Sequence record: MW822008.1
DNA: 64,000 nucleotides
DNA from: Escherichia phage BF17
Reading direction: 5' to 3' (one strand)
Shown: positions 1 through 35,164 of the stretch, in pieces
Layout of the letters: each line of letters opens with the position of its first letter
Numbering within the stretch: the stretch's first letter is position 1
Program-made: the position numbers and the translations under genes
The notes under the pieces: generated by a model
What the model saw: the letters and a program-made list of their open reading frames with translations, nothing else
The model's database searches: none
What the model was told of the DNA's origin: nothing

Positions 1-2199
1 TTGTTGTGTAAATGAACCACCTGCACCAAAATCATGAACAATTTTGTTTACACGATAAACAGTTTGGTTAAATGTAGTTGGGGTATTAATATCAAGAACA
101 CCAGTGTTATCATTTATAGAAACTACAGGTTGTAATTTCAATAAAAGATATGCTTCAGATGTAATGTAGTTTGCTACATGGTAATCTTCTGGATTAATTT
201 CCATATCTTCTCCATTAATTACCTGTTCAAGATATTGGATATATGAATAATCACTCCAACCTAACCAATATGGGTCACCAACTACACGCATATCCAATTT
301 ACACAAGAATGGACGATTGTAATAGTTGTCACGAATTTTACGGCGGTCCATTTCATATGTACTACTGTTATCGTTCAATGATGCAGATAATGTTGTTTCA
401 TTATTGGTTGCTTCAGTTGGCATTGTGAATACTTCACCATATCGATGACCAATTCCATCGGTTCCACCGTCATTTTCTTCATATGTGGTTACATAATCTT
501 CAATATACTGTGGTAGAACGTTTACTTGATAGTTATTATAACGATCCTGTTCTTCAGCATTACCAACCTGCATTTGTTCTCTTGCTAAAGTTTCTACTCG
601 ATTTAAAAGTTGCTCTTGTGCCTGTGTTAATATACCACCAAGATCACGTGTGACGCGTAAATCACTTGTTTTTGCCCACGCATCTGGTATACTGTTGTAC
701 TGAACACCTTGGATATTCAATTCTTGTGATGTGTGTGTACCAGCATGGTTCGCAACGTCCTGTATTGGACCAGGGTTACGAGTTGTAGCTACAAAGAATT
801 GCTGATCAAACTTCAAATCAAGGTCTAGAATCTCACTATTGAGTCCACTAAACTGATAATTGTAAGTTTTCATGTTAATCTTTGGTTTTTGGTCATTTGG
901 GTCTACATATTTCTCGGCATTTTCAAAGAAATACTCAAATGTAAAGTTTTCTGGCTGTAAATCGGATTCATGAACAATATCACCAATTTTAAAACGAACT
1001 ATATAGAAAACAACTTTATAAACTGACGTGTTTCGGTAATTATCAAATCCAACATACTGTTTAAGTGGGATTATATTAACAAATTGACGAACACTAGTAC
1101 TATCATCAGCCTGTACAGTACAGGTATCTATTACGTCATCGATAATTCGAGAAATTGGAGTACTTGGATTCCATGAAAAGTTTTTAGAACCCTGTGCACC
1201 ACTTTTTGTAGCTCCAGCTTCTGCCATCTGTTTAGAATCATAGTTTATAAACAAATCCTGTAAATCTGGTGCAACTTTAAATTCAAAGAACTTCCCTTCT
1301 GCTAACTCACCAAATTTATAACGCAAATAACCATATTGCTGGTCTGCCATTTGATTCAATTTATCTTCCAAATCAAAACAAAAATCACCAAAGTTTTCTG
1401 CTGTGCAGTTAAATGGTTCTTTAAGAGTCCATTCCACATTATCCACTAGAGCCGCACGGTTATGAACAAGACTCATAGAATACATCATAGTACTACCACT
1501 TTGTGATGCACTAGCGGTAACACTGTTAATCTTCACGGACCATCTACGAGTTGTTTCTGGTATAGTTTCAGGTACACCATTAGTATTGAATCCAATAAAT
1601 TTCAATTCTAATATCAAAGGTAAGTCCATGAACTTATGATACCTTAGTTTATTACTTAAAGAAATTAGTTCATCATATAAACTCATACTATTGTTTTCTG
1701 AAAGGTTCAGTACTGCTGTGTTGAAGCAATAGTTGGTTGTCATCCCTGGAGTTGAAGGACCAGCTTGCGTCATCTGAACACTTGTGATATTATACTTTCC
1801 AGTTACACCACTTTCAGAGATGACATGACGTTGAACTTCAGCATCTGGGTAAAGCCAGAAGTTTTTGAAATCATCCTTGTCTAATGCGAAAAGGGAAAAG
1901 TGCCAAGTTGGATTGTCATACTTTAACAATTTATTGTCATAAGGAATAACAAACTCACTTAGATCCAAGTCTTCATACACTTGGTCAACGCTTGCACTTT
2001 GCTTTGGTAAAGACTGTACGTTACTAACCTTAGCTTTAAAATTGTTTTTTACTTTTTCAAGATCATTTTGCAAAGTATTAGCAGTGGCTTTTAAGCTTTC
2101 AATAGTACTTGTTGCAGTTTCTTTTGCTGCCTTTGCAGAACTTGTGATGTTTGAAATATCATTTTTAAAATTATCAACAGAACTTTGTAAATCTGCCAT
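1..2199 (-). CDS. Large virion structural protein, possibly baseplate/tail; gene continues past the left window edge (3' end missing)
   Basis: ATG at 2199 with GGAG ~9 nt upstream; frame open for 733 codons to position 1. N-terminal coiled-coil-like segment (MADLQSSVDNFKNDISNITSSAKAAKE...). Absent from the ORF track because it has no in-window stop. Confidence 0.5.
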   Translation of the reverse strand, partial: MADLQSSVDNFKNDISNITSSAKAAKETATSTIESLKATANTLQNDLEKVKNNFKAKVSNVQSLPKQSASVDQVYEDLDLSEFVIPYDNKLLKYDNPTWHFSLFALDKDDFKNFWLYPDAEVQRHVISESGVTGKYNITSVQMTQAGPSTPGMTTNYCFNTAVLNLSENNSMSLYDELISLSNKLRYHKFMDLPLILELKFIGFNTNGVPETIPETTRRWSVKINSVTASASQSGSTMMYSMSLVHNRAALVDNVEWTLKEPFNCTAENFGDFCFDLEDKLNQMADQQYGYLRYKFGELAEGKFFEFKVAPDLQDLFINYDSKQMAEAGATKSGAQGSKNFSWNPSTPISRIIDDVIDTCTVQADDSTSVRQFVNIIPLKQYVGFDNYRNTSVYKVVFYIVRFKIGDIVHESDLQPENFTFEYFFENAEKYVDPNDQKPKINMKTYNYQFSGLNSEILDLDLKFDQQFFVATTRNPGPIQDVANHAGTHTSQELNIQGVQYNSIPDAWAKTSDLRVTRDLGGILTQAQEQLLNRVETLAREQMQVGNAEEQDRYNNYQVNVLPQYIEDYVTTYEENDGGTDGIGHRYGEVFTMPTEATNNETTLSASLNDNSSTYEMDRRKIRDNYYNRPFLCKLDMRVVGDPYWLGWSDYSYIQYLEQVINGEDMEINPEDYHVANYITSEAYLLLKLQPVVSINDNTGVLDINTPTTFNQTVYRVNKIVHDFGAGGSFTQQ

Positions 2200-2210
2200 A
2201 CTTTACTCCA

Positions 2211-2525
2211 TTAACCTATGTTACGAGTACCGTTCAAATAGTTTTGCACTCGTTGATTTGAGGGAACACGAATTGTGATACCACTATTAAAATTGTATAT
2301 TGGGTCTTCTCCTAATATATCAGGATTCAATAGGGCAAATACATAATACAGACGTTCATTACCATACATTTCGTATGCTAAACGCCAAGGTTGATGCTCA
2401 TACTTCAATGGAATTACATAGAAGTCGTCAGTATCAGCAGGAACCATATCACGTGGTAAATTGTAACCAAGATACCACGTTTGTTTAACCTTTGCATAAG
2501 GAGAGTATTGACTATAATTGGACAT
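2211..2525 (-). CDS. Hypothetical protein (104 aa), likely structural-module member
   Basis: ORF tightly stacked between neighbouring minus-strand genes (stop-start junctions); no recognisable motif. Confidence 0.45.
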   Translation of the reverse strand: MSNYSQYSPYAKVKQTWYLGYNLPRDMVPADTDDFYVIPLKYEHQPWRLAYEMYGNERLYYVFALLNPDILGEDPIYNFNSGITIRVPSNQRVQNYLNGTRNIG

Positions 2526-3256
2526 TAGATAAATCCTCCATTACGTAATAGTTCACCACGCTTAAATGCATTTAGGTTGAACTTTTTAGTCATGTAATCA
2601 GATGTTGGTTGTTCTTCAAGTTGAAGCATTACAGATATTTTCTGTGGAACCCATACCTCATCTTGTGGATTCATATATCCAGTACTTCTAAGCTGTTCGA
2701 AGAATTGACGACTATCCATATCAGATAAATTAAAAGTACTATCACTACTATTCAATGGAACCTGAATATAAGAAACATCATTTGGATATGTAAAATTATA
2801 TGCTTTCAAAATAACAGGAATATCATTATATGTATAACGACCATACCCACTTAATAGTAAAATTGGCGGTGGTGCACCTGCAATTGCTAGTTCGGGATTA
2901 TTAGCAGATGCTGCTTGACGACCAAAGTCCATTAAGGACACGGAACGAATAAAATGAACACAAGCCAATGCATACATTGCTTCAGCAGCAGTGTTTGCAT
3001 AAAACTCACCTTGGATAGTGAAAATTGTGTTTGTTGTATTCTTGTAGTTGTTGTAGTTACTGTTAGTATGTATAGGGGACTGTGTTTCATATTGAACCGA
3101 CCTTTGTTCAGTTACAGTTGGGGTTACAGTCCAAACCAAACCATTTGTTGGACGCAGAAACGATAGCAATGTTGGCTCTGAACTGTTGCCAAAATCACCA
3201 TACACATAGTTAGCACCTGCGGTTTTAGGTCTTAATCGGATTCTACGATCAATCAT
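2525..3256 (-). CDS. Hypothetical structural protein (about 243 aa)
   Basis: ATG at 3256 preceded by GGAGAATCAAAAAG; the longer track ORF (to 3346) would run into the divergent gp55 promoter region. Confidence 0.45.
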   Translation of the reverse strand: MIDRRIRLRPKTAGANYVYGDFGNSSEPTLLSFLRPTNGLVWTVTPTVTEQRSVQYETQSPIHTNSNYNNYKNTTNTIFTIQGEFYANTAAEAMYALACVHFIRSVSLMDFGRQAASANNPELAIAGAPPPILLLSGYGRYTYNDIPVILKAYNFTYPNDVSYIQVPLNSSDSTFNLSDMDSRQFFEQLRSTGYMNPQDEVWVPQKISVMLQLEEQPTSDYMTKKFNLNAFKRGELLRNGGFI

Positions 3257-14192: not shown

Positions 14193-14292
14193 ACAAAAAT
14201 CGCACTTTTTAAAGCTTTTAAAAATGGCGAAATTTTTCAGTACTAAATAATATCATACTTTATATGAATGTAATATATCTATGGAGGATATA

Positions 14293-16995: not shown

Positions 16996-17003
16996 TATAA
17001 ATA
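16996..17003 (+). promoter_or_regulatory. T4-type late promoter motif TATAAATA upstream of the major capsid gene
   Basis: tttttcagttcTATAAATAatatcatact; the surrounding ~28 bp block is also found at 14231-14259. Confidence 0.45.
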
Positions 17004-17047
17004 ATATCATACTGAAAAACGAATATAACATCTTTAAGGAGATAATA

Positions 17048-18223
17048 ATGTCACAACTACTAAATGAATCCAAATGGGTAGCAGTTAAAGAGAAACTAGT
17101 TGAAGGTCTACAAGGTACTCGTAAGTCCGTAATGGAAACCGTACTTGATAACCATCGTAAACTAATGCTAAACGAATCTGCTACTTCTGGTGCAACCACC
17201 GCTGGTAACATCGCTACTCTAAACAAAGTGATTCTACCAATTATGCGTCGTGTTATGCCAACCGTAATCGCTAACGAAATCATCGGTGTTCAGCCAATGA
17301 CTGGCCCAGTTGGTCAGATCCACACCCTACGTGTTCAATATGCTGACAACGCTCCTGGTGTTATCGCTGGTGAAGAAATGCTTTCTCCATACAAAATCGC
17401 TAAGTCTTATACTGGTGACCTAAACGCAGACAACAGCAACCCACAAGCTGCTCCTACTAGCCAACTAGAAGGTACTATGGGTCGTCGCGTTAACATCCGT
17501 ATTCTACGTGAAACTGTTGAAGCGAAATCTCGTCGTCTATCTGCACGTTGGACTGTTGAATCTGCACAAGATGCACAATCCCAACATGGTATCGACGTTG
17601 AAGCTGAACTAATGGCTGCAATCGCTCAAGAAGTTACCGTTGAAATCGACCAAGAGCTACTAAGCCGTCTACGTGCACTACCTGGTGCTGCTGCTGTAAC
17701 TTATGACCAATCTAAAGTTACTGGTGTTGCGACCTTCGTTGGTGACGAGCACGCTGCTCTAGCTACCCTAATCAACCGTCAAGCGAACGAAGTTGCTCGT
17801 CGTACCAAACGTGGTGCTGCGAACTGGGCTGTTGTTTCTCCAACCGCTCTAACCATTCTACAGTCTGCAACTACTTCTAGTTTTGCACGTACTACTGAAG
17901 GTACTTTCGAAGCTCCAACTAACGTTAAATTTGTTGGTACTCTAAACAGCACCATGCGTATCTTCGTTGATACCTATGCAAGTGATGTTGAAGATATCCT
18001 AATTGGTTACAAAGGTAACGCTGAAACTGATGCTGGTGTGTTCTATTGCCCATACATCCCACTAATGGCTTCCGGTACTGTAATGGACCCTAACACTGGA
18101 GAACTCGTTACAACTTTCTTAACCAGATACGGGTATGTTCAGTTGACCGATAGCACCAGTTCACTAGGTAACGCTGCTGACTACTACAGTAAAATCGCTA
18201 TCAAAAACGTTACTTTCATGTAA
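17048..18223 (+). CDS. 23: Major capsid protein (T4 gp23 family, HK97-like fold)
   Basis: TAAGGAGAT RBS; 'NEIIGVQPMTGPVGQIHTLRVQY' matches the conserved gp23 'VQPMTGP' block; strong codon bias; followed by a strong terminator. Confidence 0.85.
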   Translation: MSQLLNESKWVAVKEKLVEGLQGTRKSVMETVLDNHRKLMLNESATSGATTAGNIATLNKVILPIMRRVMPTVIANEIIGVQPMTGPVGQIHTLRVQYADNAPGVIAGEEMLSPYKIAKSYTGDLNADNSNPQAAPTSQLEGTMGRRVNIRILRETVEAKSRRLSARWTVESAQDAQSQHGIDVEAELMAAIAQEVTVEIDQELLSRLRALPGAAAVTYDQSKVTGVATFVGDEHAALATLINRQANEVARRTKRGAANWAVVSPTALTILQSATTSSFARTTEGTFEAPTNVKFVGTLNSTMRIFVDTYASDVEDILIGYKGNAETDAGVFYCPYIPLMASGTVMDPNTGELVTTFLTRYGYVQLTDSTSSLGNAADYYSKIAIKNVTFM

Positions 18224-22855: not shown

Positions 22856-25800
22856 ATGTATATCGATGCTTATATGGAACGTAAACGTACTGGTGATATT
22901 TTGCACGTAGCAGAACGTAAAAACGGTAAACGTATTCTACGTCAGTTGGACCCAGTATATGAATATTATGTTGAATCTCCTACTGGTGAACACAAAACAA
23001 TTTATGGAACCAACGCAAAGCATTTGGAGTTTGAAACTCAATCACAGATGAATAAAAGCGTTGAGCAACATAAAAATGAAGGTCTACGTATTTTTGAAAG
23101 TGATTGCAACATTACCTTCAAAACGTTGGCTAGAGAATACATGGGTAAAGGTTCGCCGGATTTGAACGTGGCATTTTTCGATATCGAAACCGACTTCCAT
23201 AAGAAGTTTGGTTATGCTCCACCATCAGATCCATTCAACCGTGTAACTGCAATTTCTCTATATCAATCATGGACTGGTAAGGATTATGTACTGACTTTGC
23301 CACCAACTGATATGGAAATGTACGAAGCACAAGATATTGTTCGTCAGTTAAACGAAGAAACTAACGACCCTAACAGTACTGTCATCCTTTATACGGATGA
23401 GAAAGAAATGTTTATGGAGTTCTTTAGTCTAATCGATGACTCTGATGTAATTTCAGGTTGGAACAGTGAATTCTTTGATATTCCATATATGGTCAACCGT
23501 ACCAAGAAAATCTTCAACGAAGCAACTACTGCTCGTTGGTGCTTGTGGAATAAAAAACCAAATGCTCGTGAAGCTGATAACTTTGGTAAAACTGTAGTAA
23601 CGTATGATCTTATTGGTCGCGTACACTTAGACTATCTTGCTCTTTATAAGAAACATGCTGGTCAAGTTGAACAGTCGTACAAACTAGATTATATTGCTGA
23701 AAAAGTAACTAAAGAAAACAAAGTATCCTATGAAGGTTCATTGGATAAACTATACCGTGAAGATTATATTACATTCTTGCGTTATTCTAAGCAGGATAGT
23801 ATTCTTCTAAAGAAAATTGATGCTAAATGTGACTTTATCAACCTGCATAACCGTCTTGCTCATAAAGAATGTGTACTAATTAGTACTACAATGGGTTCGG
23901 TTGCACTAATCGACACTGCTATCATCAACCTTGCTCACAGTCGCGGTGAAGTTGTTTTTAACAAAGCACCGAAAGATGATATTGAGTTAGATCCAGAGAT
24001 GGAGTACTATGGTGAAGAAGGTGATGAAGAAGATGAGAAAATCAGTGCAAAAGCTGCTGGTGCATGGGTTCAAGATCCAGTTCTTGGCCTTGTTAGCGAT
24101 TTGGGATGTACAGACTTTAACTCATTGTATCCAACTGTACTACGTACACTTGGCATGAGTACTGAATGTATTCTTGGACAACTTCGTCAAGACTACACTG
24201 ATGCATATCTTGCTGCTAAAGTACAAGAGCAAAAAGCTAAATCCAAATCTAAAGCGTTTGAACCTGATTGGACCGCTGCATGGCATGGTTTATTTGCTGC
24301 TGTAGAATTTACAATGGTTCATGAAAAATCTGACAAAACTTTGATTGTTGATTTAGAAGATGGTAGTTCGTTCAATGCAACTGGTAAAGAATTGTATGAT
24401 ATTATCTTTGCTGAAGACAGTACTATTGTACTAAGTGCTAACGGAACACTTTTTGATAAGTCTAAGTATGGTGTAATTCCAGATATTCTTACTCAATGGT
24501 ATTCTGAGCGTAAAGCACAACAAAAAATGGTAATCGACTACAAACACATGTACAGTGATGGGTGGGAATTCAATGGTTCTGAGAAGGTTGAACCTTTGCT
24601 ATCTAACTACACAAGTGGTACAATGTTCCGTACAAACTTACATGACAATGATCCTGTTTACCTATTACGTATTGCTATTGGTAAAGGTCAATGGGAAGAA
24701 GTTGCAAAACTCATTGTGGAAAATGGTTTAGTACTGAAAGATGGTCGTATTTTCTGTGCAACGGAAGATAAGAATTACTTCAAACAGCAAAGTGCATTCT
24801 GGAAACAGAACCAGCAAATTCGTAAGATTCTTCTAAACAGTCTATATGGTGCACTATTGAACAAAGGTTCACGTTTCTTTGATAAACGTTTAGGTCAGTC
24901 CGTTACCTTAACTGGTCGTTCTATGACTAAACATATGGCAAGCCGTATCAATGAAATCACTACTGGCGTTTATAATCACCAAGGTGGCTCTGTGATTTAC
25001 GGTGATACTGACTCCGTTTACTTCAGTGTAACTCATTACCTGAAAGAACAAGGTATTCCATATAATCTTTCGAAAGAAGAAATCGTTGACATGTATATCA
25101 AAATTGGTGATGAAGTTGGTGAATCATTCCCTTCATTCATGAACGAAATGTTCAATACTGGTATTGAGAAAGGTAAGATTGTTGGTGCAGACCTAGAGAT
25201 GGTCGGTTCCCGTGGTCTATTCCTGAAGAAAAAGCGTTATGCAATTCTCAAGTACTGGGAAGATGGTTTCCGTAAAGATGTTGATGGAAAGCCTGGTGAA
25301 ATTAAAGCGATGGGTCTTGAAATTAAACGTTCAGATACGCCAAAATACATCCAGAACTTCCTAGAAGAGACTCTAATTGCATTGCTGGTGGGTGAGTCTG
25401 AAGCTCAACTTAAACAGCGTGTACGTGACTTTAAAGAGGTATTTAAAGACATGCCTGTACACGAAAAGGGTTCACCGAAAACTGTTAAGAACTATACCAA
25501 CTTAGAAGCAGAATATGAAGTTTCTGGTAAATGTAAAGTTGGTCACGTATTAGCAGGTATTCAATGGAACCGTCTACGTGAAGTATATGATGACAAAACT
25601 GTACCTGAAGTAACTGACGGTACAAAAGTAATTGTATGTAACTTAAAAGATAACCCGATGGGTATCAAAGCAGTAGGTTACCCAATTGACTGTGTGGAAT
25701 ATCTACCTGAATGGTTCTTAGAACTACCATTTGATACAGAGAAAATGGAAGAAATAGTTCTAACTAAAAAATTAGAAAACATTTTTGGTATTCTGGATAT

Positions 25801-25861
25801 GGATATTGGTATTCATGAGAAAAGCACAGCAGCCGTTAATAACGGATTCTTCACCTGGTAA
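22856..25861 (+). CDS. 43: Family B DNA polymerase (T4 gp43 family)
   Basis: Exo I 'FFDIETD', polymerase motif C 'IYGDTDSVYF', 'SLYG' motif A region; 1001 aa. Confidence 0.9.
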   Translation: MYIDAYMERKRTGDILHVAERKNGKRILRQLDPVYEYYVESPTGEHKTIYGTNAKHLEFETQSQMNKSVEQHKNEGLRIFESDCNITFKTLAREYMGKGSPDLNVAFFDIETDFHKKFGYAPPSDPFNRVTAISLYQSWTGKDYVLTLPPTDMEMYEAQDIVRQLNEETNDPNSTVILYTDEKEMFMEFFSLIDDSDVISGWNSEFFDIPYMVNRTKKIFNEATTARWCLWNKKPNAREADNFGKTVVTYDLIGRVHLDYLALYKKHAGQVEQSYKLDYIAEKVTKENKVSYEGSLDKLYREDYITFLRYSKQDSILLKKIDAKCDFINLHNRLAHKECVLISTTMGSVALIDTAIINLAHSRGEVVFNKAPKDDIELDPEMEYYGEEGDEEDEKISAKAAGAWVQDPVLGLVSDLGCTDFNSLYPTVLRTLGMSTECILGQLRQDYTDAYLAAKVQEQKAKSKSKAFEPDWTAAWHGLFAAVEFTMVHEKSDKTLIVDLEDGSSFNATGKELYDIIFAEDSTIVLSANGTLFDKSKYGVIPDILTQWYSERKAQQKMVIDYKHMYSDGWEFNGSEKVEPLLSNYTSGTMFRTNLHDNDPVYLLRIAIGKGQWEEVAKLIVENGLVLKDGRIFCATEDKNYFKQQSAFWKQNQQIRKILLNSLYGALLNKGSRFFDKRLGQSVTLTGRSMTKHMASRINEITTGVYNHQGGSVIYGDTDSVYFSVTHYLKEQGIPYNLSKEEIVDMYIKIGDEVGESFPSFMNEMFNTGIEKGKIVGADLEMVGSRGLFLKKKRYAILKYWEDGFRKDVDGKPGEIKAMGLEIKRSDTPKYIQNFLEETLIALLVGESEAQLKQRVRDFKEVFKDMPVHEKGSPKTVKNYTNLEAEYEVSGKCKVGHVLAGIQWNRLREVYDDKTVPEVTDGTKVIVCNLKDNPMGIKAVGYPIDCVEYLPEWFLELPFDTEKMEEIVLTKKLENIFGILDMDIGIHEKSTAAVNNGFFTW

Positions 25862-25871
25862 GGAAAATATT

Positions 25872-26012
25872 ATGATTATTGCAGACGAAACTAAACTAAA
25901 ATATGACGAAGTAAATGACGTATTCTCTGATGAATCACTAGCACTGTCTGAGGACAGTGTTAACGAGGCGTGGGAACAGTACGTTTTATGGAGTGCATCC
26001 CAAGGAGAGTAA
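25872..26012 (+). CDS. Small acidic ORF (46 aa), uncertain
   Basis: AAGGAAAATATT then ATG at 25872 immediately after the polymerase stop. Confidence 0.25.
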   Translation: MIIADETKLKYDEVNDVFSDESLALSEDSVNEAWEQYVLWSASQGE

Positions 26013-26013
26013 T

Positions 26014-26316
26014 ATGGAAAATATCTATAAGCGTGTTGGTGCAGTACTGGAAGATAGTACTATCGTAAATTCAGTACTTGCATACAATAATGATGATGAA
26101 GTTGTTCTAATGTCTGCTGGTTTCACCAGATCTGGCTCTGTTGAAATTGACGGTGAGATTGTTGACGTCTATTCTATTGAAAAGAAACGCAAAGTTGTCA
26201 TTGTTGAAGATGTTAACACGTTAAAAGACTTAGAACATCTACGTTACAAATTCAACATTGGTGCAGGTGCAAACGCTGATAAGCCGTACCTTAAACGTTG
26301 GAACACAAAATACTGA
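26014..26316 (+). CDS. Hypothetical protein (100 aa)
   Basis: GGAGAGTAAT then ATG at 26014; no recognisable motif. Confidence 0.4.
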   Translation: MENIYKRVGAVLEDSTIVNSVLAYNNDDEVVLMSAGFTRSGSVEIDGEIVDVYSIEKKRKVVIVEDVNTLKDLEHLRYKFNIGAGANADKPYLKRWNTKY

Positions 26317-26323
26317 TAAAAAA

Positions 26324-26353
26324 TTGAGACAAGCATCATTCACGAGATATAAT
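26324..26353 (+). promoter_or_regulatory. Sigma70-like promoter (TTGAGA-18 nt-TATAAT)
   Basis: TTGAGAcaagcatcattcacgagaTATAAT upstream of the clamp-like gene. Confidence 0.35.
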
Positions 26354-26420
26354 GGTGCTTGTAGTAATCTGAAGCATACAAAAACATTTTTGATTAACAA
26401 ATAAAACGGAGAATTATATA

Positions 26421-27152
26421 ATGGATCTACGCAACGTACTACGTGACCTAGTTAACACTACCAACGGCATCGACTTTTCTTGTATCGCAGTTAGCAGTGA
26501 AGACCGTGGTGATGGACAGCGTGTTTACATGGAAGCATACACCGATGACCGCACCCTAGTTATGCGTGCTCACACTAAAGAAGACGTACCAGAAGTTCAA
26601 GGTCGTTTTGGTCTTGGTAACCTAGGTCTTCTACAGGGTCTAATGTCTCTAAAAACTTATAGTACTGAAGGAACTACTATCACTTCTAACTTGAAAGATG
26701 GTGCAGTTAAGAGCCTAGCATTCAAAGCAGAAGATGCAAGTACTACTTTCATGGTTCAACCAGAAAAACTAATTCCAGCCCAGCCTCGTTTCCACGAACA
26801 ACCATATGACGTACAGGTTACACCTAGTGCAGCTAAAGTTCAGGAACTAAAAAGCTTCTCTGGTGTGTTTAAATCTTTCAGTTCTCTAGTAACTCCATAC
26901 ACTGAAGGTGATACTCTTTACTTCCACGTTGGTGAGAAGAACAAAAGTAACCACGTTGGTGCACTAGCATTCTCTAAAACTGAAGGTGAACTAGGTCTTG
27001 GTTTTGGTTATAACATTGATCGTGTTCTACAAGCTCTATCCCGCGTTTCTAACGCAGAATCTGTTACCCTTGGTATTACAAAAACTGGTATGCTAAACGT
27101 AACTCTAGACACTGGTATTGCGGTATACAAGATTTACGTAACTGGTTGCTAA
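26421..27152 (+). CDS. Putative sliding clamp (T4 gp45-like)
   Basis: Size close to gp45; strongly codon-biased; 'GLGNLGLLQGLMSL' and 'KAEDASTTFMVQPEKLIPAQP' resemble remembered gp45 stretches. Needs profile confirmation. Confidence 0.4.
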   Translation: MDLRNVLRDLVNTTNGIDFSCIAVSSEDRGDGQRVYMEAYTDDRTLVMRAHTKEDVPEVQGRFGLGNLGLLQGLMSLKTYSTEGTTITSNLKDGAVKSLAFKAEDASTTFMVQPEKLIPAQPRFHEQPYDVQVTPSAAKVQELKSFSGVFKSFSSLVTPYTEGDTLYFHVGEKNKSNHVGALAFSKTEGELGLGFGYNIDRVLQALSRVSNAESVTLGITKTGMLNVTLDTGIAVYKIYVTGC

Positions 27153-27160
27153 TATAAATA
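27153..27160 (+). promoter_or_regulatory. Late promoter motif TATAAATA
   Basis: gctaaTATAAATAatgg just after the clamp stop; followed by hairpin GGGGAACatggaGTTCCCC. Confidence 0.3.
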
Positions 27161-27218
27161 ATGGGGAACATGGAGTTCCCCAAATTTTTGATTTAAAAAT
27201 AAGTAAAGGAAGACAAAA

Positions 27219-27425
27219 ATGCCATTATATACATATCGTTGTGAAAAAGAAGAATGTAAACACAGTTTAGAAAAGATTGTAAAAATTGCCAATCGTGAAG
27301 AACCTCATGATTGTCCTCAATGTAATGGTGAAAAGACTATGAAGTTGGAAGTTTTTACCCCTGGTGATAAAGGTGCTAATCTTTATTTCCGTGGTAAATG
27401 GTTTGCAAACACTGGAGGTTACTGA
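27219..27425 (+). CDS. FmdB-like zinc-ribbon protein
   Basis: 'MPLYTYRCEKEECKH...HDCPQCNGEK' matches the FmdB-type 'MPxYxYxC...C...CPxC' layout. Confidence 0.5.
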   Translation: MPLYTYRCEKEECKHSLEKIVKIANREEPHDCPQCNGEKTMKLEVFTPGDKGANLYFRGKWFANTGGY

Positions 27426-27426
27426 T

Positions 27427-27729
27427 ATGAAAATTAAAATGATTAACGATTATGTACTGGTTCGTCAAATTGAAGCACAGAATAAAAGTACTGGTGGTAT
27501 TATCCTAGGAAACGTGGAACCACCATGTGTTGGTATGGTGATTTCAGTTGGTGAAGGTAAAGTACTACCTAATGGGCAAATTGCAGAACATAATATTTGT
27601 GTTGGTGATATGGTTGTATTCGGTCGTTCATCACTAAACACTCCTATCACTGAAGATCTTGGTGGTGGTGAAGACACATATTATGTGATGAAAATTGAAG
27701 AAATTTTTGGTAAGAAATCAAATGGCTAA
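27427..27729 (+). CDS. GroES-like co-chaperonin (functional analogue of T4 gp31)
   Basis: GGAGG RBS; 'INDYVLVRQIEAQNKSTGGIIL...GMVISVGEGKVLPNGQ...VGDMVVFG' follows the GroES pattern. Confidence 0.7.
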   Translation: MKIKMINDYVLVRQIEAQNKSTGGIILGNVEPPCVGMVISVGEGKVLPNGQIAEHNICVGDMVVFGRSSLNTPITEDLGGGEDTYYVMKIEEIFGKKSNG

Positions 27730-28447
27730 AAAAAGGTTTATTCCTTTCTGGATGGTCCCCGCTCATTGGGGACTTTCTGGTAAAGCGAAAGAGATTGCGA
27801 AAGCATACTACTATAACGATGATTATGAAGCTGATATGTTAGTTGCAGAACTTACATATCTAACACCATATGAAGTTGATGTAGCACAGTTGGATATCAA
27901 AAAGAAATACAATGTATTAGAAACTCTTGATTATCTAATAGCACAGGCAGATGTACAATTGAAGTATTCCAAGATTACCCGTGATGAGTATAATGTAAAA
28001 TTACTTGATGCTAAATTAAGTACTGGTGCAATTACTCAAAAAGAGTATGATATGGAAGTAATCGAACTAATGCCTGATGGTGATGACAAACGTCTTAAAG
28101 CTATCGAGTTTGCATATCGTTATGAAGAGATTACACAACAAGAGTATTCAAAGGAAATCTTTACTTTACGTAAAGAACCTTGGATTGATTTGGATGTAGT
28201 ACTTAATCCAGAAACAAATGAAGTTGAATTTGTTTTTGATTATAATGAATACTTTTGGAAAAAGTTAAAAGCGGAAGGTCATCCAGGTAATGACGAAGAA
28301 GAAATTATTGACAACTTCGTTAGAGACATGGGGCGTAAACTAGCTACGGATGATTTCAGTGATGATTATGACGTAAAGCTAGTGAATGCGAACGAAGGGT
28401 TAGAGAATCTACCTGGTTTACCTGAAGGGTTCCGTTCATACAAATAA
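27722..28447 (+). CDS. Hypothetical protein
   Basis: ATG at 27722 overlapping the GroES-like stop; acidic; no recognisable motif. Confidence 0.45.
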   Translation: MAKKRFIPFWMVPAHWGLSGKAKEIAKAYYYNDDYEADMLVAELTYLTPYEVDVAQLDIKKKYNVLETLDYLIAQADVQLKYSKITRDEYNVKLLDAKLSTGAITQKEYDMEVIELMPDGDDKRLKAIEFAYRYEEITQQEYSKEIFTLRKEPWIDLDVVLNPETNEVEFVFDYNEYFWKKLKAEGHPGNDEEEIIDNFVRDMGRKLATDDFSDDYDVKLVNANEGLENLPGLPEGFRSYK

Positions 28448-28480
28448 AAAAAGGAGAGCAAAAGCTCTCCTTTTCTTTTA
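28445..28480. terminator. Bidirectional hairpin terminator between convergent genes
   Basis: aaaaaaaGGAGAGCaaaaGCTCTCCttttctttt (A-run upstream, T-run downstream). Confidence 0.65.
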
Positions 28481-28491
28481 TCTTTAATTTA

Positions 28492-29181
28492 TTAAACCAT
28501 CGCTGGGATGAATTTGAATAGTTTGATACCGAAGTCACCAGCAGCATCAGCAGCTTGGGAACGTAGAACAACTTCAGTAACACCATCTTTAGCGAGTAGT
28601 GGAACTGCGGTTAGGTCATCAATTAGTAGACGGCCTTCTTCGATCTCAGTACTTGGAACGCCTTGGAAAGATTGAATATCTTTATCAAATACGTTAGCAC
28701 GTTCAACGAGGAAAGTAACTACTGAAGCACTAGCGATATCAACAGACCCAACACTTAGGATACCGTCAGCAGCGTTGGTAAAACCAGTAACTGCAAATGG
28801 CTCAACGTCGTTGCCAGCGATTTCGGAAGTAGCGATGATAACTGCACGTTGTTGAACAACATCAACGATACGTTTAACGTTAGTTTGTGCAGCGTAAGCA
28901 GCGTTATAATCAGCTTCTAGAGTTGCTGCTTCAAATGGAGTACCATCGATACGGATGATACCTTTTTCGTTTAGATATGCAACGATTTCATCAGCTACGT
29001 CAGTGTTTAGGAAACGTTGTAGACCAGCGAAAGAACCAACTGCACCAGTAACACGCACGTTAACATTACCAATTTTACTAATTGCGATAGATGCTAGGGC
29101 GTTTTTGCCACAGAAGTAACCTAGAATTTTATCAAAGGAATAACCATTGATACGTTCAAAAGAAGTATTAGTATTAGACAT
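28492..29181 (-). CDS. Paralog A of a codon-biased, likely highly expressed protein pair (possible virion protein)
   Basis: 229 aa; shares 'QQRAVIIATSE' and 'FLVERANVFDKD' with the neighbour ('QQRAVLVTTS', 'FICERQDVFDKQ'); Ala/Val/Thr/Gly-rich. Confidence 0.55.
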   Translation of the reverse strand: MSNTNTSFERINGYSFDKILGYFCGKNALASIAISKIGNVNVRVTGAVGSFAGLQRFLNTDVADEIVAYLNEKGIIRIDGTPFEAATLEADYNAAYAAQTNVKRIVDVVQQRAVIIATSEIAGNDVEPFAVTGFTNAADGILSVGSVDIASASVVTFLVERANVFDKDIQSFQGVPSTEIEEGRLLIDDLTAVPLLAKDGVTEVVLRSQAADAAGDFGIKLFKFIPAMV

Positions 29182-29196
29182 ATTGTAGTCCCCCTA

Positions 29197-29796
29197 TTAT
29201 AGTTGTACTGGTAGAGCAGCACGAACTTTAATTGCAACAGCGTCAGCGGCAGCAGCATCACCAACACCATCAGTACCTAGAGCAACATAAGATTTGGTAC
29301 GGAAGAATTTAGCTTGTGCAATAGCTTTAGCTAGTTCAACAGTTGGATCAACTGGAACAGAGTAAGCAGCACCTGGGCGAACTTCTTGTTTGTCAAATAC
29401 GTCTTGACGTTCACAGATGAAGGTTAGAGCAACAGAACCAGCACCACCTGTAACATCAGCACCACTAGTACCAAACGCGATTACGTTACCACCAACGGTT
29501 TTAAAGTCAGCAGGGATAACAACAGCGGTGTCTAGAGCTAGTACGGAAGTAGTAACTAGTACTGCACGTTGTTGTAGTAGTTGGGTAATCATGAATTGGT
29601 TGTATTGAGCATTGCTGATTGCAGTTTGTAGTGCTTCATCTTGAATTTCGGAACCGTCAGAAGTAACAGCGGTAGTACCAACTTCAACATCTGCTGGTAG
29701 ATCAACAACGATGGTTACGAAACCATTGTTACCACCCCAGTATTCACGAGCAGTAGCAGACATACCATAGTTACGGTTAAAAGAATTAAGACTCAT
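29197..29796 (-). CDS. Paralog B of the same pair
   Basis: 199 aa; see paralog A; preceded by GGAG RBS on the minus strand. Confidence 0.55.
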   Translation of the reverse strand: MSLNSFNRNYGMSATAREYWGGNNGFVTIVVDLPADVEVGTTAVTSDGSEIQDEALQTAISNAQYNQFMITQLLQQRAVLVTTSVLALDTAVVIPADFKTVGGNVIAFGTSGADVTGGAGSVALTFICERQDVFDKQEVRPGAAYSVPVDPTVELAKAIAQAKFFRTKSYVALGTDGVGDAAAADAVAIKVRAALPVQL

Positions 29797-29929
29797 AAAA
29801 ATCTCCTTGTCAAATTTTGTGCAGGAACACCCTGCTTAATATTATTTATCAAAAAATATAAACCACATTTAAATTTAAGGCAATATTCCCTGATCTCTAT
29901 GATATTATTTATCAAATCTGGGAAAGTGA

Positions 29930-35164
<5,235 letters not shown>

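Follow-up and report, generated by a model that had tools for sequence, protein, structure and literature searches.

Escherichia phage BF17 carries two adjacent genes that are the only minus-strand genes between approximately 9.9 and 59.6 kb of the window, by which we mean the whole stretch of 64,000 nucleotides (nt) from sequence record MW822008.1 that was analysed. They occupy positions 28492-29796. The original prediction, made from the sequence alone, had described them as codon-biased paralogs inside the replication block, could not place them in a known family, and suggested that they may be abundant virion proteins with a decoration, tube or internal role. We find that they belong to a family of abundant virion structural proteins. 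The best explanation as a whole, to which we give about an even chance, is a late operon of paralogous virion subunits that most likely decorate the outside of the capsid and do not form the tail tube.

The promoter-proximal gene (29197..29796, minus strand) is an open reading frame (ORF) of 199 amino acids (aa), encoding a protein of 20.8 kDa with an isoelectric point (pI) of 4.5. The distal gene (28492..29181, minus strand) is an ORF of 229 aa, 24.3 kDa and pI 4.5, and both ORFs are exactly as first described. The spacer between them (29182..29196, minus strand) is 15 nt long, reads TAA TAGGGGGACTACAAT ATG and holds the ribosome-binding site GGGGGA. Because neither a terminator nor a promoter was found between the two genes, they read as a bicistronic operon. 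The location inside the replication block is also borne out, with the DNA polymerase, clamp and GroES genes on one flank and the RNase H, terminase, gp32 and RecA genes on the other.

The two genes are paralogs over their whole length. Both of the shared blocks that had been quoted are present (QQRAVLVTTS and QQRAVIIATS for the first, FICERQDVFDKQ and FLVERANVFDKD for the second), and pairwise BLASTP aligns the proteins with 34% identity over 93 aa (E 9e-7). Each protein moreover covers the 195-position profile of phrog_9326, the 199-aa protein with residues 1-199 (E 2.6e-82) and the 229-aa protein with residues 4-229 (E 3.4e-81). An alignment of 86 sequences from both branches has nine invariant columns, from R8, G11, G22 and N24 at the N-terminus through to E129 and R130. 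The chief difference of the 229-aa form from the 199-aa form is a two-helix insertion of approximately 32 residues. The proteins are as rich in Ala, Val, Thr and Gly as had been claimed: these residues make up 44.7% of the 199-aa and 38.0% of the 229-aa protein, the two highest values among 70 ORFs, compared with 37.1% for the capsid gene. They are rather hydrophobic, with grand average of hydropathy values of +0.23 and +0.28, and have one Cys.

The claim that the pair has no known family does not hold, as it belongs to PHROG 9326, which is labelled 'virion structural protein', and the paralogy was noted in 2013. The region is 99.9% identical to the Escherichia phages Turkey3, WPEC3 and WPEC5, 99.6% identical to fEgEco12, and approximately 82% identical to 121Q, PBECO4 and phAPEC6, which places the phage among the Rak2-like jumbo myophages. 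Orthologs of the 199-aa protein are RaK2 ORF107w, phAPEC6 gp210, CBB_271, GAP32_265, 121Q gp618 and fEgEco12 g364, and those of the 229-aa protein are RaK2 ORF106w, phAPEC6 gp211, CBB_270, GAP32_264, 121Q gp617 and fEgEco12 g363. Protein identity is approximately 72-75% to RaK2 and K64-1, 80% to 121Q and phAPEC6 (including the phAPEC6 ortholog of the 199-aa protein) and approximately 60% to CBB. The RaK2-type orthologs form the same adjacent pair in the same orientation and are flanked by the same neighbours, with GroES and ORF105 at one end and RNase H at the opposite end. The pair differs in nothing of substance from the RaK2 gp106/gp107 family.

This tandem layout, divergent from the RNase H gene (rnh) and convergent with the GroES/ORF105 unit, is found in RaK2, CBB, 121Q, G17 and Munch, and also in Eneladusvirus, Kaldavass, UE-S1, Vibrio phage 2.275.O and a distant metagenomic contig, whose member of the family thus retains the rnh-divergent pair. 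Vibrio phage 2.275.O differs in having three tandem paralogs instead of two (227, 184 and 234 aa; positions 1135-3206 of its locus L008). Word-indexed searches with the two proteins returned 43 and 78 clusters. The family profile matched 42 proteins among 1.84 billion representatives and revealed no informative extra domain; one match of 1054 aa was weak and is likely spurious. With tblastn the family was found in 73 phage records, all of them jumbo phages of Enterobacterales, Xanthomonas or Vibrio. Among distant members, insertions are tolerated at differing sites.

Published virion proteomics of the orthologs bears directly on the function of the pair. In the RaK2 paper, ORF106w and ORF107w are identified by tandem mass spectrometry from gel-separated proteins of purified virions, run at their predicted size with no cleavage, and are treated together with the capsid protein, the sheath and gp528 with a stress on their abundance; the same paper already calls them 'two distantly related proteins' (PMC3622015). 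In phAPEC6 the peptide coverage of gp210 and gp211 is 69.8% and 69.9%, where the capsid protein reaches 74.9% and the sheath 68.0% (PMC7247149), and in CBB it is 91.3% for CBB_270 and 56.4% for CBB_271, compared with 68.1% for the capsid protein (PMC5259590). Ortholog proteomics from RaK2, phAPEC6 and CBB hence supports the proposal of abundant virion proteins, and we are highly confident that the pair encodes abundant late virion structural proteins. This status, like the paralogy, was already known from the orthologs.

The codon usage of the pair agrees with such a role. In a reference-free principal component analysis of synonymous codons, in which 64 genes were compared and axis 1 explains 30% of the variance, the capsid gene ranks first on this axis, followed by the 229-aa gene, the 199-aa gene and gp32. 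In a log-likelihood codon test with the capsid and gp32 genes as reference, the pair takes the first and second ranks. The likeness to the codon usage of capsid and gp32 that had been proposed is therefore reproduced by both methods. A peculiarity of the most codon-biased genes (the pair at 28492-29796 and the capsid gene at 17048-18223) is the use of CTA, the least common Leu codon of E. coli. It accounts for 82% of Leu codons in the pair and 74% in capsid and gp32, compared with 25% in all other genes. The same preference is found in the orthologs of RaK2, CBB, Munch and Eneladusvirus. No tRNA genes were found in the window, and RaK2 and fEgEco12 reportedly do not encode a tRNA-Leu (PMC3622015, PMC13070987).

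The region upstream of the pair offers a link to the capsid gene. The exact 11-mer ATAAATAATAT has four copies in the window, where 0.23 are expected, and all of them lie 26-106 nt upstream of structural genes. Two precede the pair on the minus strand, a proximal late-promoter-like box (29839..29849) 43 nt upstream of the start codon of the 199-aa gene and a distal second copy (29902..29912) 106 nt upstream of it. Both boxes are retained in five lineages. The others are on the plus strand, at 16997-17007, 41 nt before the capsid gene, and at 33824-33834, 26 nt before a 434-aa structural gene. A near-copy with one mismatch (14243-14253, plus strand) precedes a 280-aa acidic, scaffold-like gene. 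In the proximal box GATAAATAA is kept across lineages, including RaK2, CBB, Munch and Eneladusvirus, and in the distal box the ATAAATA core is found in all ten upstream regions of the enterobacterial group, with both Vibrio regions deviating. The authors of the CBB study predict ATAAATA to be the late promoter in both CBB and GAP32 (PMC5259590). We suggest ATAAATAATAT as a candidate extended late-promoter consensus of Asteriusvirus-like phages. It is this longer motif that is enriched in the window, and not the exact TATAAATA of T4, for which there are 5 sites compared with 7.3 expected. A generic sigma-70 scan was uninformative, with 5 sites in the window compared with 4.5 expected. At the level of the motif, the common box is what would be seen if the pair were co-regulated with the capsid gene in the late class.

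Directly after the proximal box lies a stem-loop, GCAGG-GUGUU-CCUGC (29821..29835, minus strand), with a 5-bp stem where the late mRNA is predicted to begin. It belongs to the minimum free energy fold, and all five pairs of its stem can form in each of 11 upstream regions, which come from at least seven phage lineages. Compensatory double changes are found in four of the five pairs, which none of 500 shuffles reaches, and controls slid along the alignment show none. Variants of the stem include GUAAG/CUUAC in RaK2 and, in the two Vibrio copies, CCAGG/CCUGG and GCCAG/CUGGC. The leader hairpin is probably a 5'-terminal stem-loop that stabilises the mRNA. The leader of the capsid gene does not have this hairpin. 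In Vibrio phage 2.275.O, a promoter-box and hairpin unit of its own precedes both the first and the second paralog. Next comes a Shine-Dalgarno motif, AAGGAGA (29802..29808, minus strand), 5 nt upstream of the start codon of the 199-aa gene; the motif is also found before the capsid gene, and GGAGA is invariant in 11 lineages.

The pair had been said to lie between a bidirectional terminator and a divergent promoter region; both were found and are conserved in relatives. The intrinsic terminator (28446..28477) acts on paper in both directions, with a 14-bp stem, a 4-nt loop and T-runs on either strand, is common to the pair and the convergent 241-aa gene (27722-28447, plus strand), and is annotated at the same spot in the phages G17, Munch and UE-S1. 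On the other side, a putative extended -10 element, TGCTATAAT (29939..29947, plus strand), would serve the divergent rnh, whose start (ATG at 30008) is taken from the fEgEco12 annotation. Its ATTATA core is invariant in five lineages, and the GC next to this core, which belongs to the TGn element, is variable in RaK2 and CBB. The convergent 241-aa gene matches phrog_13349, is the ortholog of RaK2 ORF105, encodes a very acidic protein with 50 Asp and Glu residues and overlaps GroES by 8 nt. It is called 'virion structural protein' in RefSeq, but it is not found in the virion mass-spectrometry tables of phAPEC6 and CBB, and the label may be over-propagated.

AlphaFold2 gives confident models for both proteins, with a predicted local distance difference test (pLDDT) score of 88.7 and a predicted template modelling (pTM) score of 0.83 for the 199-aa protein, and 81.1 and 0.76 for the 229-aa protein. 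The models are compact and globular rather than fibrous, mixed alpha/beta, with a predicted ferredoxin-like core topology. The N-terminal 24 residues hold four of the nine family-invariant positions, yet their pLDDT is only 51-56. Because this N-terminus is strongly conserved yet predicted to be disordered in isolation, we infer that it may be an arm that becomes ordered on docking to a partner in the particle. The fold has no solved homolog among the structures searched: neither the two proteins nor their family profile brought up anything meaningful among PDB sequences, and Foldseek against BFVD found only family members and weak, unannotated jumbo-phage proteins (for example from Atu_ph07, E 1e-3). 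Scans of Pfam and NCBIfam gave only sub-threshold noise (GLMA_C, OxRdtase_C, and Mmp10 with 25 bits against a cut-off of 350), and they do not support the label 'hemagglutinin repeat-containing' that was given to the family in phAPEC6.

Where in the particle might such proteins be found? The capsids of 121Q and phAPEC6 have T=28 symmetry, with 1620 subunits of an HK97-sized gp23-family protein, and carry on their outside an elongated protein that is present 1:1 with the capsid protein and forms a hexagonal or zig-zag network across the local two-folds (PMC5646251, PMC7247149). Maps at approximately 10 Å show further outer densities, a hexon-centre anchor for fibres and a penton cap (PMC5646251, PMC7247149). 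Our literature searches found no high-resolution structure of a Rak2-like phage or an Asteriusvirus; phiKp24 is an unrelated T=27 phage. The capsid gene in our window matches the Pfam family Gp23 (9.5e-90). Several observations argue for the pair as outer-capsid proteins. A 1:1 decoration protein is expected to be among the most abundant proteins of the virion, and abundance is what the authors of the RaK2 paper stress for gp106w and gp107w. The proteins have a pI of 4.5, are uncleaved, are rich in Ala, Val, Thr and Gly with a single Cys, and have a conserved, disordered N-terminal arm. They have a promoter box in common with the capsid gene, and their genes neighbour the phage GroES within the region for head, packaging and replication. 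Known decoration proteins join the exterior of the shell without proteolytic processing. On these grounds a place on the capsid exterior has, in our judgement, a little less than an even chance. Somewhat less probable again is the specific proposal that the paralogs, perhaps as a heterodimer at the local two-folds, build the outer T=28 lattice with a fold without solved homolog and dock through the N-terminal arm. A position at the hexon-centre anchor (270 hexons with a few copies each) is compatible with the data and overlaps with external capsid decoration in general.

The likeness to T4 Soc and Hoc and lambda gpD would be a functional one. Like these proteins, the pair is small and abundant, and by its promoter motif it would be late; in the manner of T4-type decoration, there is a gp23-family shell with an extra outer density of approximately 1:1 in 121Q and phAPEC6. 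No homology to the described decoration families (Soc, Hoc, gpD, Dec and others) was found, and there is no sequence or fold relationship to Soc, Hoc or gpD in our searches. The proteins of the pair are also larger, 21-24 kDa compared with 9-11 kDa for Soc and gpD, and there are two paralogs instead of one protein.

There are several points that weigh against an outer-capsid location. Firstly, the position of the pair in the particle is argued from indirect evidence and not from localisation. Secondly, the authors of the phAPEC6 study left room for the possibility that the ridge belongs to the capsid protein (PMC7247149). Thirdly, other small virion proteins of phAPEC6 are well covered, namely gp347 (75%), gp306c (66%) and gp253 (66%) (PMC7247149), and these could equally fill the outer densities. 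Fourthly, a copy number like that of the major capsid protein is suggested by codon usage as biased as that of the capsid gene, the published ortholog coverage of approximately 56-91% and the abundance in RaK2, but coverage is a rough proxy for copy number. And finally, the late timing of the pair is deduced from a promoter motif and not from transcripts.

A surface role other than a 1:1 lattice is unlikely, though it fares best among the alternatives. Rak2-like phages bear unusual head and tail hairs; the hair-like fibres are found both on the hexons of the capsid and along the tail at three levels, and 12-copy elongated proteins are found at the collar and the distal tail. The pair might thus provide the base or anchor of the hair fibres, or the collar and distal-tail proteins. 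Two paralogs could suit two attachment sites, and the composition fits that of surface proteins. However, the predicted models are compact and globular rather than fibrous, and 12-copy collar proteins would be too few for the abundance reported in RaK2 or for a coverage of 70-91%.

Less probable still is an internal position in the head, for example as building blocks of the inner body or as other packaged proteins, so that the internal role offered by the original prediction keeps only a small share of our confidence. The capsids of 121Q and phAPEC6 contain a radiation-sensitive inner body of approximately 91 x 18 nm, as well as density under the vertices (PMC5646251, PMC7247149), and a high copy number would fit either. 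But the pI values of 4.48 and 4.50 and the hydrophobicity of the pair suit a DNA-embedded role poorly. T4 internal proteins and phiKZ inner-body proteins are proteolytically processed. The RaK2 orthologs migrate uncleaved at their predicted mass (PMC3622015), and the pair shows neither the processing by a prohead protease nor the basic, DNA-associated character of internal head proteins. The phAPEC6 authors favour for the inner body a different group, the RCC1-like 'DNA condensation' paralogs found in phAPEC6 virions (PMC7247149).

The third role that had been offered, in which the contractile sheath would surround a tail tube made of one or both proteins, is very unlikely and is largely refuted by family profiles, predicted fold and gene position, leaving decoration as the best supported of the three. 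The tube was suggested in the 2013 RaK2 paper, when no tube gene had been recognised, and it had in its favour that these are abundant proteins of 21-24 kDa for which a beta-rich secondary structure was then predicted (PMC3622015). Three paralogous genes downstream of the sheath gene, however, match tube profiles. In fEgEco12 these are g297-g299, which come after the sheath gene g295, with matches to phrog_4542 (E 7e-86 and 1e-80), phrog_13438 (E 2e-225) and phrog_45 (E 2e-4), and the pair (g363/g364) lies not beside the sheath gene but approximately 85 kb from this cluster. The identity of the tube family derives from these PHROG profiles and the position beside the sheath gene, and no sequence relatives of its proteins were found in the PDB. 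The counterparts of the trio in phAPEC6, as judged from gene order and mass, are gp275c, gp274c and gp273c, which are present in the virion with a coverage of 9.2%, 16.3% and 29.9% (PMC7247149), far exceeded by that of the pair. Neither protein of the pair matches a tube PHROG or Pfam family, and an hhalign comparison of the pair family with the phage's own tube-family trio gives a probability of 0.2%. The predicted fold also differs from the Hcp-like beta-sandwich with a flanking helix. T4 gp19-type tubes (PHROGs 4542, 13438 and 45) are similar to the pair in size and abundance, but they are an unrelated family with a differing fold. The tube family is itself triplicated after the sheath gene (228, 258 and 364 aa; positions 25477-28135 of the fEgEco12 locus L006), another tandem duplication of structural genes in these jumbo phages.

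That the pair are abundant late non-structural proteins, such as chaperones or scaffolds, which co-purify with particles is hardly credible, for although gp32, RecA and thymidylate synthase do occur in such virion proteomes and the pair adjoins a GroES homolog, the proteins are found in three independent virion proteomes from three genera with a coverage comparable to the capsid protein, compared with approximately 10-17% for co-purifying proteins such as gp32, and the RaK2 paper describes the orthologs as abundant and identified from gel-separated virion proteins (PMC3622015).

We also observed that the large terminase region of the window reads as three ORFs on the plus strand (31525-32211, 32183-32527 and 32490-33827). 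The pieces of 114 aa and 445 aa share 38 nt, read in different frames, and are separate coding sequences in fEgEco12; CBB has a single TerL of 549 aa at the corresponding place. Either a split gene or a frameshift, whether programmed or not, could account for the arrangement.

Returning to the pair as capsid decoration, the system would consist of one late, very highly expressed bicistronic operon, which the bidirectional terminator and the divergent promoter region would insulate from the surrounding plus-strand replication and packaging genes. Its products would be two paralogous, acidic, uncleaved virion subunits, each with an alpha/beta core and an N-terminal docking arm. These subunits would form an external decoration of the gp23-type T=28 shell, with the ridge or cement lattice of approximately one per capsid subunit as the leading candidate and the hexon-centre anchor as an alternative outer position. 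What is new here is that the tail-tube idea can be retired and that there are confident models without a solved homolog. At the level of sequence signals, the late-promoter-like box common to the pair and the capsid gene and the leader hairpin supported by covariation are new as well.

Many database records describe members of the family as 'hypothetical', 'hemagglutinin repeat-containing' or, by implication, tail tube. We suggest that 'Abundant virion structural protein, RaK2 gp106/gp107 family' is a defensible annotation. The pair bears on how very large jumbo-phage shells are stabilised when they are built from capsid subunits of ordinary size. Since 2017 and 2020, no proteins have been assigned to the decoration on the capsids of 121Q and phAPEC6 (T=28), for which the pair stands out as the most obvious candidate. 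With confident models at hand and the tube set aside, an assignment to the lattice is directly testable in a map of better than 4 Å. If the assignment is true, the pair would represent a new structural class of capsid cement protein, which would stabilise a shell with a capacity of 350 kb that is made of HK97-sized, gp23-type subunits.

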